Below, piece by piece: positions 6,554 through 16,567 of a DNA stretch of 39,664 nt. The notes under the pieces are model-generated. The model did no database searches, was not told the origin of the DNA, and saw nothing but the letters and a program-made list of their open reading frames with translations. The DNA comes from Solobacterium sp. UBA3691. Lineage in GTDB: Bacteria; Bacillota_I; Bacilli_A; Erysipelotrichales; Erysipelotrichaceae. The stretch covers positions 1 through 39,664 of the forward strand of contig DFIS01000080.1 in the NCBI GenBank assembly GCA_002372175.1. Reading direction: 5' to 3'. A program made the position numbers and the translations under genes. Position 1 is the stretch's first letter, and every line of letters starts with the position of its first letter.

Positions 6554-9184
6554 TCAATTGATTTTCACCCACATAGCTGGACGGATCATGTACTCGTATT
6601 TTTGTTTAACAATCGGAGAATATCCATCAACGTATATACCATACAAGCCAATGCCTCCATCATGTACTCCAAAAGCAGCAGTATAAGGTTCTTGACCGGG
6701 CGAGCGCAGCCACCAATTAGAACCATTAGTGACATCGTTGACATAAACACCTTTCCCGAGTGTATATGGTGTTGCTTTTGCCAATCTTTCAGCATCAGAA
6801 TTAAAATACTGCTGAGCTTCCTGTATTGATAACAGGAATATCTTATCCTGTGTATCTTTTCCCGGATCTGTATTGTACTCCGGATTCTTGTCTGCTGTCA
6901 CAGTGCTTGTTTCAATGAGTGATTGTTCTTCACCGGTAAATGCTGATGAAATAAAATAACTATTCAACCATTTTCGAAGTGAACAAGTTTGCCATGTACC
7001 ATTCTCCCTTGATGTATCATATGGCTGACTGTCCAATCCGTATTCACTGATCAAAAGGATCCTGTTATCTTCTTTTGCTAAAACTTTCCATGTAATAGCT
7101 TCTTTGCCATTAGAAGTACTCGCATCCTGTTCATATGAACCAAATGTTACTATTTCTCCGGGCTTGGCAACCATAACTGTAACATACGGATTTTCTTCTC
7201 TAATAGATGCTGCCAGTTCAGCGCTGTCTTTATATCCATTCAAACCCATCAATATCTCATATGCGCCGGCATAATCTCCATTTTCTCGCATAGCAATTGC
7301 GGATTTATACTTATTGCTTGGAATTACCGTTGTTCTTATGATCACAAAAGCAACCACACAAAGAACCAAAACAGCAGTAACTATGCCAATTATGCTCTTT
7401 TTCTTTTTACGGGAGATTTCTTCCTGTTTTCTCTGAATCGCATACTGTCGCTCTATTTCTTTGCGATTCTCTTCTGTTAATCTGTCTATCTCCTTCTGGC
7501 AATACTCTGAATAACCGCCGCTTTCCTGATAACCCTTAAGCGAATCAAATACTGTTTTTGCTTTTTCAAAAGACGTTATATCTGTTGCGGCATTCATCGC
7601 AGTAATAGCTTGTGTATAGTCCAGATTTCTCCTTTGCTCTGCCTGCTCAGCCAATGCCTGCACTTCTTTATCTGCTTGTATAAGGAAAGCAGCATAATTA
7701 CTCTTCACCTTAGAAATACTGTTCTCATCTGTCTTTTTAGCAAGGGTGATACGCTCGTCCAAAATACGGTTTAATTCTGAGAGTTCATTTTCCAGCTTCT
7801 TCTTTGTTTCACCTTTAGCGTATTGTAATGCTCTGGTCAGATTACGTTCTGATTCCAATTCTTTTTGCAGCTTTGATTTTTGAATTCTTCTGCTTTGAAG
7901 ATAAGAGTCAAATCCAAGATCATATTGATATTGTCTCAGAATAGCTTCTCTGTCCAGGTATCCGTCAATACTGTATTTCTGTACTGCTGCATTAATATGA
8001 TCATTATCTTCCTGTCCTGCTTTTACTCGCTGGATGCCGGCATGTTTATACTCTTCTTTGTAATGATTAAACAAAGCTTCAAGATTTGGCTGACGGTTTT
8101 TCAGCAGAAGTTTTCCAAGATATGCTTCTGCAGATTCAGGCTCCTGATTCAGTGCTTCTTCAAAGAAACTATCGGCTTTATCCCATTCCTTGTCCTCAAG
8201 AGCTATCATGCCTCTTTTGACAAATGCCGAGGCACCACCTGAAGAATTGTTCTGAGTAACCGCCTTCTGAACAAACGGGGCTGCAGTCTCCTTTATAACC
8301 ACCTTTTTGATTCCACGAACCACATCATTGATAAATCCAATCTTACTCATGTCCTGTGCCTGGAGATGTGAGAATTCTTCAGGCAGGTCATATGCATCCA
8401 TATCTCTGTAGCAAGGAATCAGCAGCTTGGTACGGTCTTTTTTCATCAATTTCAGGAAACGTGACCATTCGTTCTTTACCCATACTGCATTGAAATACTC
8501 CGGTCTAGTGCCAATCACCAGCATTACTTTTGCTGTATTCAGTGCTGAGAAAATATACGGTTCATATTCTTTTCCCAGTTTATCTTCCAAAGTAATAGCC
8601 GCAAAGAATACTTTAAATCCTTCACGTGTCAGTTGGTAATAGATTTCATTGGCAATCACACTATCCTGTGTTCGTTTCCCAGATTCATCCGTCTCCTTAT
8701 AGCAGATGAAAACATCATATGGATCTTCTTTCTGTGCAAGGGCAAGGATTCCGCGCTGGATCTCATCGATCTCTTTAGCCTGAGCTTCATAGATTCCTCT
8801 TTGGGCAGTATCTGCGTAATATAATGCGTTCTTATAATCTTCATCCGCAGTGACTGATTCATATGACGCACGATGGCATGTCGGAACTCTCTTATACGTC
8901 ACCGGATCTTCAACATACTCAATACCGTACTTACAGAGGATAAGCCCCCAGTATGCTTCAGCTTCTGTTTCACTCCTCTGAAGGATCTTTTCATAGATCT
9001 CTGCTGCTTTATCAAACTCAGAGCGCATACGAAGCGTATTTGCTCTGTTGAAAAGCGTCTGCAAACCTTCATCATGAACAGAAGGAATTGTTTGTCTGGT
9101 ACCGCAGAACTCACATTCACATACCCTGCTTCCCTCTATAACGGTTAAATCACCGCCGCACATCTTACATTTCCATACCACCAT
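6554..9184 (-). CDS. Transmembrane TIR-domain protein: N-terminal Zn-ribbon, TPR-like region, TIR domain, TPR, long coiled coil, one TM helix, C-terminal DUF6273-like domain
   Basis: I moved the start to the ATG at 9184 (AAGGAG RBS 8 nt upstream); the track ORF starts at 9214. Zn-ribbon: CKMCGG...CECEFCG. TIR-like block: YDVFICYKETDESGK...AVWVKNEWSRFL, nt ~8315-8719, with the candidate catalytic Glu codon at 8468-8470. TM helix: KKKK-SIIGIVTAVLVLCVVAFVII-R, nt 7337-7396. The C-terminal domain has the SNWWLRSPG and RPAMWV motifs typical of DUF6273. Confidence 0.8.
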   Translation of the reverse strand: MVVWKCKMCGGDLTVIEGSRVCECEFCGTRQTIPSVHDEGLQTLFNRANTLRMRSEFDKAAEIYEKILQRSETEAEAYWGLILCKYGIEYVEDPVTYKRVPTCHRASYESVTADEDYKNALYYADTAQRGIYEAQAKEIDEIQRGILALAQKEDPYDVFICYKETDESGKRTQDSVIANEIYYQLTREGFKVFFAAITLEDKLGKEYEPYIFSALNTAKVMLVIGTRPEYFNAVWVKNEWSRFLKLMKKDRTKLLIPCYRDMDAYDLPEEFSHLQAQDMSKIGFINDVVRGIKKVVIKETAAPFVQKAVTQNNSSGGASAFVKRGMIALEDKEWDKADSFFEEALNQEPESAEAYLGKLLLKNRQPNLEALFNHYKEEYKHAGIQRVKAGQEDNDHINAAVQKYSIDGYLDREAILRQYQYDLGFDSYLQSRRIQKSKLQKELESERNLTRALQYAKGETKKKLENELSELNRILDERITLAKKTDENSISKVKSNYAAFLIQADKEVQALAEQAEQRRNLDYTQAITAMNAATDITSFEKAKTVFDSLKGYQESGGYSEYCQKEIDRLTEENRKEIERQYAIQRKQEEISRKKKKSIIGIVTAVLVLCVVAFVIIRTTVIPSNKYKSAIAMRENGDYAGAYEILMGLNGYKDSAELAASIREENPYVTVMVAKPGEIVTFGSYEQDASTSNGKEAITWKVLAKEDNRILLISEYGLDSQPYDTSRENGTWQTCSLRKWLNSYFISSAFTGEEQSLIETSTVTADKNPEYNTDPGKDTQDKIFLLSIQEAQQYFNSDAERLAKATPYTLGKGVYVNDVTNGSNWWLRSPGQEPYTAAFGVHDGGIGLYGIYVDGYSPIVKQKYEYMIRPAMWVKIN

Positions 9185-9265
9185 ACTTAAGTCTCCTTCG
9201 TAGTTTTCTGGCAAAAGCTATTCCTATTACATTTTTGGTTTATGATTCACCTATTTGTTATATTT

Positions 9266-15809: not shown

Positions 15810-15979
15810 AAACGTGTACTTTTTTGCTTGGTAATATGTCTAAATCAAATTTTAACATATACCGCTCTTTATGCGCATAACAATAAGGTACTTAGAAGCT
15901 AATACTCACTGTTCAATAAGTACACGTTTGCAACACCCCCTCCTTTCCCGGGATTCTGTGTGCTCATGTGTACTTTTTC
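15810..15979. promoter_or_regulatory. Cluster of three AAGTACAC-core repeats (two inverted pairs) bracketing a promoter-like element; candidate recombinase site / invertible switch
   Basis: Copy A is aaacgtgtactttttt (15810-15825). Copy B is aataagtacacgttt (15915-15929) and is inverted relative to A, with a 12-nt perfect core and about 15/16 overall. Copy C is tgtgtacttttt (15968-15979), in the same orientation as A and sharing 11 nt with it. Between A and B the minus strand reads TGTTAAAAT (an extended -10; + coordinates 15849-15857), pointing towards the TIR gene start at 15738. Confidence 0.45.
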
Positions 15980-16567
15980 TGTGTTTTATTGCTTTATACC
16001 TGAAGGTAGATTTGGGCATTCCGCATAATTCTGCAGCTTTCCCCGTACTGATCTCTCCTGCATTCCAGCTTTGGCATACTCTTCCAAAAGCTTCCGGTAT
16101 CTCTTTCTCCGGTCTGCCGAAGCGTACGCCTCTTGCCTTCGCTGCAGCAATGCCTTCCGCCTGTCTCTGCCGTATATTTGCTCTTTCGTTCTCTGCCACA
16201 AAAGATAATACCTGCAGTACGATATCTGCCAGGAATGTTCCCACCAGATTTTTCCCCTTCTGGTATCCAGCAGAGGCATATCTATGACCACAATGTCTAT
16301 CTTTCTGTTCTTTGTCAGATACCTCCACTGTTCCTGGATCTCTTCGTAGTTTCTTCCCAGTCTGTCGATACTCTTGATGTACAGCAGATCGTCTTCTTTC
16401 AGCTCCCTGCATAAGTTAATATACGCAGGTCTGTCAAAGTCCTTGCCTGACTGTTTGTCTGTAAAGATGTTGTTTGGTGACACTCCGCAGTTGATCATCG
16501 CTGTAACCTGTCTGTCCTCATTCTGTTCTTTTGTACTGACACGTACATATCCATAGATTACTGTCAT
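15906..16567 (-). pseudogene. Small serine recombinase (resolvase/invertase family), disrupted by a frameshift
   Basis: The N-terminal catalytic domain ([16 protein letters not shown]...[10 protein letters not shown]...[11 protein letters not shown]) is in the frame of ORF 15986..16567. The continuation ([50 protein letters not shown] plus an [22 protein letters not shown]) is in the frame of ORF 15906..16412. The frame switch lies at the AGAAGGGGAAAAATC tract, + coordinates ~16246-16262. Confidence 0.8.

Follow-up and report, generated by a model that had tools for sequence, protein, structure and literature searches.

The 39,664-nt contig DFIS01000080.1 of Solobacterium sp. UBA3691 (GenBank assembly GCA_002372175.1), which in its full length we call the window, contains a low-GC island that encodes two large TIR proteins, an SPFH protein, a protein with four transmembrane (TM) helices, and a HEPN-like protein. 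Our proposal is that these genes make up a mobile accessory conflict system of an unnamed type, most likely directed against phages or other mobile genetic elements (MGEs), a reading to which we give about an even chance. An earlier prediction made from the letters of the window (the original prediction) had drawn attention to a six-gene block on the minus strand, and we confirmed its open reading frames (ORFs), coordinates, and strand: all ORFs listed between 6554 and 16567 are present, and all lie on the minus strand. The features that carry the argument are as follows.

6295..16481, minus strand: cassette-bearing accessory low-GC island of ~10.2 kb, delimited by synteny break and GC content
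13153..15738, minus strand: protein A, 861 aa, soluble, with Zn-ribbon, TPR, TIR, coiled coil, and DUF6273 (Pfam)
14899..15267, minus strand: TIR domain of A, aa 158–280 (Pfam TIR_2), with candidate catalytic residue E239 at codon 15022–15024
13162..13632, minus strand: DUF6273 of A, aa 703–859 (Pfam), C-type-lectin-like (fold per PMC10743442 and bioRxiv 10.1101/2024.10.15.618418)
10970..12820, minus strand: protein B, 616 aa, with three N-terminal Zn-ribbons, a Band_7_1 SPFH domain (11774–12376), and three C-terminal Zn fingers
10979..11243, minus strand: three 90-nt tandem repeats, 68–81% identical (repeat search), encoding the C-terminal Zn fingers of B, WDCxCGxxNxxxxFCxxCG
10278..10967, minus strand: protein C, 229 aa, with four TM helices and a cytosolic four-helix domain (hydropathy; AlphaFold2 model, pLDDT 88)
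9266..10207, minus strand: protein D, 313 aa, with an N-terminal beta domain and a probable HEPN-like helical domain; Rx4H motif, R268–H273, at 9389–9406
6554..9184, minus strand: protein E, 876 aa, single-pass membrane protein with Zn-ribbon, TPR, TIR, coiled coil, TM helix, and DUF6273
8345..8713, minus strand: TIR domain of E, with E239 at codon 8468–8470
7337..7393, minus strand: TM helix of E
6563..7069, minus strand: DUF6273 of E

Proteins A and E are paralogs, as had been predicted, sharing 39% identity overall and ~65% identity in their first 300 residues. Pfam detects a TIR_2 domain (E = 2.9e-11 in A and 1.4e-11 in E) and a DUF6273 domain (E = 2.4e-32 and 6.2e-30, respectively) in both proteins, as well as a sub-threshold TPR in A; the start of E was placed at ATG 9184, the longest possible ORF beginning at TTG 9214. 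The first ~300 residues are strongly conserved in the family and consist of a CxxC...CxxC ribbon, a TPR-like pair, a CKYGIEYVDDP...TCHR segment, and the TIR domain. A W235-V-K-N-E239-W240 motif in the TIR domain is invariant in an alignment of 48 homologs and likewise among the first 60 homologs listed, and the two glutamate codons that the original prediction had singled out as conserved are those of E239 in A and E. The W-x3-E spacing of this motif is presumably the same as that in SARM1 (WVHKE642) and plant TIRs (WCxxE). We sought an alignment of the catalytic site through PDB sequences; a single-sequence search returned nothing, and a family profile matched nothing but TPRs, coiled coils, and the DUF6273 of one IgA protease.

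The family members diverge after a variable coiled coil, with some TIR paralogs ending in DUF6273, many in RCC1 propeller repeats, and others in BspA-type leucine-rich repeats (LRRs). Hydropathy agrees with the original prediction in placing a single TM helix in E (aa 598–616, preceded by KKKK), none in A, and four in the 229-aa protein C. Given the KKKK ahead of the helix of E and the positive-inside rule, the TIR domain of E is predicted to lie inside the cell and its DUF6273 outside. A TM helix precedes the C-terminal domain in 61 of 110 complete TIR paralogs, and ~45%, including A, have none. DUF6273 is a C-type-lectin-like domain that is a common target of diversity-generating retroelements (DGRs) in the receptor-binding proteins of gut phages (PMC10743442, PMC11792537, bioRxiv 10.1101/2024.10.15.618418), and it is known also from a gut-bacterial IgA protease (PDB profile match 9qa6). 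In their domain composition, the TIR proteins of this large family (>8000 homolog clusters at E <= 1e-10) look like receptors with exchangeable C-terminal binding domains rather than like the small ThsB proteins of Thoeris. The coiled coil of the family (profile positions ~470–625) gave weak, non-significant matches to PspA/Vipp1 (E = 0.16–0.25) beside other coiled-coil proteins. These matches are probably coiled-coil noise, given that apolipoproteins and myosin score alike, and they are of note solely because YdjI-type SPFH proteins recruit PspA.

Protein B is a Band_7_1 protein (Pfam E = 2.5e-37) in which hydropathy reveals no TM helix, and the six Zn-binding modules previously claimed for it are legible in its translation; a search of B against PDB sequences found no match. 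An antisense ORF of 156 aa (10998–11468, plus strand) is probably a by-product of the tandem repeats. The stop codon of B and the start codon of C are separated by 2 nt, so that the tight spacing described in the original prediction stands but its count of 3 nt does not, and the two genes appear to form a translationally coupled pair. At least 510 clusters of C homologs were found, nearly all of them 229 aa in length. These homologs adjoin an SPFH gene in every 4-TM-anchored locus that we sampled, and the SPFH gene in turn adjoins TIR genes in most related loci.

The association of these genes was examined in a metagenome scan that used TIR-module peptide patterns alone and yielded 79 loci, which were annotated with custom-built profiles. 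The adjacency counts are as follows.

All TIR-anchored loci (n = 79): SPFH or 4-TM gene adjacent in 59, both in 43
TIR-anchored loci of >=10 kb (n = 47): SPFH or 4-TM gene adjacent in 39, both in 33
TIR-anchored loci de-replicated at 95% (n = 45): SPFH or 4-TM gene adjacent in 34, both in 22
De-replicated loci with >=5 kb on each side of the TIR block (n = 9): SPFH or 4-TM gene adjacent in 7, both in 6

Each locus encodes 1–5 TIR paralogs. The anchors share 51–79% identity with A, and the linkage is therefore not that of one recently spread element. When the 4-TM gene serves as the anchor, all three loci (3/3) show the SPFH gene, then the 4-TM gene, and then one or two TIR genes. The gene linkage that the original prediction expected across genomes is thus found from both anchors, which together define a core composed of the SPFH protein, the 4-TM protein, and 1–5 TIR-module proteins. 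Among the loci with the closest TIR homologs, L012 and L013 encode SPFH, 4-TM, and DUF4365 proteins, two TIR-DUF6273 proteins, and a resolvase; L014 encodes SPFH, a 235-aa protein, a 243-aa protein, and two TIR-DUF6273 proteins; and L016 encodes two TIR-DUF6273 proteins, SPFH, 4-TM, a 670-aa protein, and a further TIR-DUF6273 protein. The hosts are labeled, among others, as Ruminococcus, Lachnospiraceae, Roseburia, Wujia, Saccharofermentans, and Solobacterium, and all occurrences of the cassette in the sampled data belong to gut and rumen Bacillota.

Some cassettes at least seem to move on conjugative elements, given that in L104 (1–20687) the genes for an RHH protein, SPFH, 4-TM, TIR, a SIR2_2-like protein, and a second TIR protein lie amid VirB4/TraG-like, VirD4-like, NlpC/P60, and T2SSE ATPase genes. 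Neither the PLSDB plasmid records nor the INPHARED phage records match the TIR module, which occurs in two IMG/VR contigs only. In L033 the TIR genes of the cassette are separated from its SPFH gene by an inserted IS1595-family transposase gene (5748–6917). Shufflon- or invertase-type switching of the paralog array was considered and ruled out, there being no inverted repeats and all genes pointing in the same direction.

Protein D is variable where the core is constant. Its AlphaFold model has a pLDDT of 95, and the Rx4H motif noted in the original prediction is borne out by 73 homologs, in which W166, Y265, R268, and H273 are invariant. The domain matches that had been expected were significant in Pfam for TIR_2, Band_7_1, and DUF6273, but no HEPN-clan profile matched D: neither Pfam, PADLOC, nor NCBIfam matches the protein, no Pfam model matches any of the 73 family members, Foldseek gives nothing, and a D-family profile finds no HEPN chain among PDB sequences. 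We consider D likely to be HEPN-like and a putative RNase. A word-based search gave a family of two clusters and an exhaustive HMMER search gave 315 representative clusters; the genome scan for the family used a 12-sequence alignment. D-family genes occur within cassettes only in the window and in L003, L010, L011, L018, and L081, and elsewhere they are stand-alone. One stand-alone member, in L007 (6389–11020), adjoins SLATT_4, SMODS (CBASS-type), and KilA-N genes, indicating that the HEPN-like family occurs in other defense-type neighborhoods as well.

In other cassettes the position equivalent to D is taken by DUF4365 (PD-(D/E)xK clan), an HNH_2 endonuclease, a DUF4760 membrane protein, an NmeDI_C/HARE-HTH protein, a borderline SIR2_2/AbiH-like family (5–6 loci), several unknown families, or a paralog of the TIR proteins that lacks the TIR domain. 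This last family (550–670 aa) keeps the Zn-ribbon, TPR, and coiled-coil regions, is often encoded between the SPFH and 4-TM genes, and has members inside the cassettes of L016 (7674–9686), L018 (3240–4940), and L032 (4934–6643), as well as 8 others. Judged from these comparisons, D is the occupant of a variable slot and not a member of the core. The cluster membership claimed originally thus holds for the TIR, SPFH, and 4-TM genes but not for the HEPN-like gene as a constant member. In conflict systems, exchangeable nuclease- and NADase-type genes next to a constant core usually mark an effector slot.

One sister locus, L081, combines three TIR-DUF6273 genes and one D-family gene with a complete DGR (7514–9660). 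This element comprises an Avd-like ORF (7801–8190), an Asn-rich template repeat (8232–8357), and a reverse transcriptase (RVT_1, 8593–9660; E = 5e-19), and its 126-nt variable repeat (7514–7639) is the 3′ end of a gene encoding a Zn-ribbon–TPR–TIR–DUF6273 protein. Mismatches between the repeats fall at template adenines in 19 of 28 cases, adenine making up 29% of the template (binomial test on a 110-nt sub-window, p ~4e-4). A screen that required >=80% of mismatches at adenines missed L081, and a relaxed ungapped screen recovered L081 alone; the other sampled loci have no template/variable repeat pair within the sampled DNA, and the 39.6-kb window has neither such a repeat nor a reverse transcriptase. 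The window does share one trait with DGR targets, the C-type-lectin-like DUF6273 at the C-termini of A and E.

The island itself differs from its surroundings in composition and distribution. GC content per kb at 6–16 kb is 37–47%, mostly 38–42%, against ~51% in the flanks. The Solobacterium contig L100 (metagenome-assembled genome, MAG, GCA_017431245.1) aligns with the window at 91–93% identity, and the alignment stops at window positions 16482 and 6294, which sets the length of the island at ~10.2 kb. Just 380 bp separate the 2-hydroxyacid dehydrogenase gene from the PreP gene in L100, as they do in another metagenome contig, L101, and the flanking citrate-lyase and M16-peptidase proteins of the window group with proteins of Solobacterium sp. 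MAGs. In the island-less allele the recombinase gene is reduced to its initial 27 codons (L100:11337–11422, equivalent to window 16482–16567), and the ~100 bp beyond them are unrelated in sequence. The stub indicates that the cassette was recently gained or lost at this site and, together with the unrelated sequence, that the "empty" site is a deletion or replacement scar and not a pristine attachment site. Searches for att-like boundary repeats, tRNAs, and Rfam families at the island found none. Synteny and composition thus bear out the AT-rich accessory island that the original prediction had placed beside a recombinase: the island is, on this evidence, an accessory insertion, horizontally acquired and missing from close Solobacterium relatives. 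Those outcomes that the original prediction listed as speaking against it and that are open to sequence analysis came out in its favor, in that a TIR domain is present, the genes are co-localized, and the locus is not a conserved core locus. Three further features of the block are as follows.

6298..6326, minus strand: terminator-like hairpin with a 13-bp stem and a T-run, closing the downstream edge of the island and coinciding with the synteny break at 6294
15906..16567, minus strand: frameshifted pseudogene for a resolvase/invertase-type small serine recombinase (Pfam Resolvase in two frames)
12820..13014, minus strand: 64-aa ORF overlapping the SPFH start via TAATG, unsupported as a gene

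The recombinase was correctly described as frameshifted. Its Resolvase domain is divided over two frames (15986–16567 and 15906–16412; Pfam E = 5.4e-18), the YVRVSTKEQ serine motif is present, and the frame breaks in a G4A5 run at ~16246–16258, leaving a reading frame that is not intact. An identical 193-aa recombinase product is annotated in three further assemblies, and non-orthologous small serine recombinases (28–35% identity) repeatedly adjoin sister cassettes. The TAATG-coupled small ORF that had been proposed as a possible gene exists, but homologs lend it no support as a gene: beyond copies of its own genome no relative of it was detected, and Pfam gave no match. In 44 loci a CopG-type ribbon-helix-helix (RHH) protein of 64–66 aa is encoded directly upstream of the SPFH gene (e.g., L104:8035–8229, L106:7875–8075, and L107:7864–8058) and is probably a transcriptional regulator of the sister cassettes. 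The ORF in the window matches these genes in position and size, yet it obtains no score against the RHH profile of the sister cassettes and is perhaps a decayed relic or else spurious. Outside the island, a 172-nt direct repeat (73% identical) occupies window positions 333–504, at the 5′ end of a MatE gene (509–1876), and 1716–1887, just before the following gene, and the synteny with L100 makes a pair of neighboring MatE paralogs its probable source.

The function proposed above and the mechanism that we outline here are predictions, built on domains, gene linkage, a variable slot, an accessory status, and an invariant glutamate that are observed. YdjI is a soluble Band_7 protein with a Zn finger that requires the membrane proteins YdjG/YdjH for its membrane localization and recruits PspA there (PMC8581546). 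By analogy, B and C would build a membrane platform at which the TIR proteins would dock, with E displaying its C-type-lectin-like DUF6273 outside the cell and A holding its DUF6273 in the cytoplasm. Binding of an invader-derived ligand by the C-terminal domains would cause the TIR domains to cluster and, via the invariant E239, to cleave NAD+. We favor NAD+ depletion as the primary output, with a nucleotide signal as the alternative, because the TIR domain belongs to a large protein of sensor type and because a separate enzyme is missing from minimal cassettes. The slot gene, here encoding the HEPN-like putative RNase D, would be an add-on effector whose cleavage of RNA could reinforce growth arrest.

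Several considerations weigh against this interpretation. The defense role is read from sequence analysis, and contact between the TIR proteins and the SPFH/4-TM pair is our inference. PADLOC and NCBIfam yielded no system-level match, and the cassette is thus not tied to any validated system. Approximately one-fifth of TIR-module genes stand alone (e.g., L043 and L094, both with full flanks). Gut Firmicutes often carry BspA-LRR, RCC1, and DUF6273 domains on ordinary surface proteins, and non-immune sensing would therefore fit the ectodomains equally well. The 106 nearest flanking ORFs of 37 loci are mostly housekeeping; in favor of the proposal, the same 106 ORFs include strong matches to DrmB, AbiEi/AbiEii, Type I methyltransferase, PD-T4-6, PD-Lambda-2, DolB, and several PDC candidates, which are no more than suggestive of defense. 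A more far-reaching version of the proposal, which we regard as doubtful, is that the TIR proteins are functional bacterial Toll-like receptors, in which single-pass proteins with lectin-like, LRR, or propeller ectodomains at the surface would detect phage particles or other invaders before genome entry and relay this inward by clustering of their TIR domains on an SPFH microdomain; in some lineages a DGR would rewrite the ectodomain, creating an anticipatory, antibody-like repertoire.

Of the alternatives, the one that survives best is a Thoeris-like variant, possible though of limited probability, in which the TIR proteins make a signal of the cyclic ADP-ribose type that acts on a separate effector, either the 4-TM/SPFH pair as a membrane-disrupting protein or channel or the slot proteins through their non-catalytic N-terminal domains. 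One TIR family accompanied by many alternative effector-type genes is the pattern by which new Thoeris types have been defined, the extra N-terminal beta domain of D could bind a ligand, and a borderline SIR2_2-like accessory occurs in 5–6 loci. There are also weak ThsB-type matches (PADLOC ThsB1, E = 1.1e-3, 16 bits; NCBIfam ThcB4, E = 4e-6), but they fall far short of the thresholds of ThsB models (for ThcB4, 25.9 bits where 220 are required). The TIR proteins are moreover 800–1000 aa in length and carry sensor-like domains of their own. In this they are closer to sensor-plus-TIR-effector proteins such as Avs-TIR and SPARTA than to the small ThsB proteins. Among the window proteins we found neither SLOG nor Macro nor any other known signal-binding domain, and the 29 Thoeris types, as presented in the text and four supplements of the 2025 survey considered below, include no SPFH, Band_7, or DUF6273.

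It is unlikely, in our view, that the cassette is an envelope-stress module of the Psp/YdjGHI kind, in which the SPFH and 4-TM proteins would recruit coiled-coil TIR proteins to a damaged membrane and TIR would serve as a scaffold or metabolic switch instead of acting as an immune enzyme. Such a role would accord with the YdjI-like Band_7_1 domain of B, its Zn fingers and dedicated TM partner, and with the occurrence of many cassettes amid housekeeping genes. The matches of the TIR coiled coil to PspA/Vipp1 (E ~0.16–0.25) might also be cited, but they are non-significant and typical of coiled-coil noise, and neither the window nor the sampled cassettes contain a PspA gene. The island is absent from close relatives and has a foreign GC content, and its variable number of paralogs, variable C-terminal domains, and nuclease-type slot genes would be unexpected in a housekeeping stress module.

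We judge similarly improbable a non-immune role in surface sensing, in which the TM-bearing TIR proteins would be receptors for host, dietary, or neighbor-cell ligands (e.g., glycans) that signal into the cell, in the service of colonization or kin recognition and not of defense. DUF6273, BspA-LRR, and RCC1 are typical surface-binding ectodomains, many of the paralogs are single-pass membrane proteins, DUF6273 is shared with the IgA protease mentioned above, and the cassette is limited to gut and rumen Bacillota in our sample. The ~45% of paralogs without a TM helix, A included, would however be cytoplasmic; the nuclease-, HEPN-, and SIR2-type accessories and the known defense genes nearby are hard to account for; and the invariant catalytic-type glutamate suggests an enzymatic TIR. 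That there is no system at all, and that the TIR proteins act alone among chance neighbors in a junk island, is very improbable and already contradicted by the co-occurrence data: although there are a few solitary TIR-module genes (L043 and L094) and the recombinase is a pseudogene, SPFH–4-TM–TIR adjacency recurs in dozens of de-replicated loci from different Bacillota families at 51–79% identity, holds when anchored on the 4-TM gene too, and includes a B–C gap of only 2 nt.

The conflict system that we propose seems to be new. Our literature search found no paper tying SPFH or Band 7 proteins to TIR defense, and the text and four supplements of a 2025 systematic TIR survey (29 configurations) contain no SPFH, Band_7, stomatin, prohibitin, or DUF6273. 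The cassette thus recurs widely and is apparently unnamed, lying outside PADLOC-DB v2.0.0, NCBIfam, and those parts of the 2025 survey. TIR-based immunity is a theme common to bacteria, plants, and animals, and, to our knowledge, the characterized bacterial TIR systems all sense infection intracellularly. If our proposal is true, SPFH scaffolds would join the parts list of bacterial immunity, the TIR proteins would be the first candidates for outside-in immune sensing through membrane TIR receptors, and L081 would connect TIR receptors with DGR-driven diversification. With >8000 TIR-module clusters and at least 510 4-TM clusters, the family is large and gut-associated.

Comparison with known systems places the cassette near several of them. 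Like Thoeris (types I–XI), it has TIR proteins with a catalytic-type glutamate, often several TIR genes, alternative effector-type genes, and the character of an island-borne accessory. It departs from Thoeris in the size and composition of its TIR proteins, which have 800–1000 aa with a Zn-ribbon/TPR module, a coiled coil, in some cases a TM helix, and a binding domain at the C-terminus, and in its constant SPFH and 4-TM partners, neither of which is a known Thoeris component. The original prediction recognized no Thoeris effector or named system here, and PADLOC and NCBIfam likewise return none; the Thoeris effector domains (SIR2-SLOG, Macro-TM, caspase-like, DUF2270, and others) are absent from the window proteins in searches with Pfam, PADLOC, and NCBIfam. 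By composition the cassette would behave as a TIR defense system, yet by effector and ThsB-model thresholds it appears to fall outside Thoeris.

The SPFH/4-TM pair recalls the PspA-YdjGHI system of B. subtilis, in which a soluble Band_7_1 SPFH protein with one or more Zn fingers is also encoded beside dedicated anchoring membrane proteins. There, the Zn-ribbons are on YdjG and a Zn finger lies near the C-terminus of YdjI, whereas in the cassette comparable modules are all fused to B; protein C is likened to YdjH/YdjG by its membrane nature and position. Unlike PspA-YdjGHI, the cassette has TIR partners, no PspA gene, and a location in an accessory island rather than in a sigma-W stress operon.

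In sensor-fused TIR NADases (Avs/NLR-TIR, SPARTA TIR-APAZ, and TIR-SAVED), the sensor part triggers TIR oligomerization and NAD+ depletion, which is the mechanism that we favor for the cassette. The cassette differs from these proteins in having no STAND NTPase, pAgo, or SAVED, in using C-type-lectin-like, LRR, or RCC1 sensors that are often predicted to be extracytoplasmic, and in its obligatory SPFH/4-TM pair. The DGR-diversified conflict systems of multicellular bacteria (Kaur et al. 2020, PMC7159879) have a C-terminal C-type-lectin fold, sometimes together with TIR, and in them, as in L081, a DGR diversifies the lectin domain; the vWA-MoxR, STAND, and GTPase cores that these systems have in cyanobacteria and actinobacteria are absent from the cassette, and the window has no DGR. 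The animal Toll-like receptors, finally, are single-pass proteins with an extracellular binding domain, which in some of our paralogs is likewise an LRR, and a cytoplasmic TIR domain. In the cassette proteins the order is reversed, with an N-terminal TIR and a C-terminal ectodomain, and the enzymatic glutamate is kept. Because only the TIR domain is plausibly homologous to that of Toll-like receptors, we regard the likeness as architectural.

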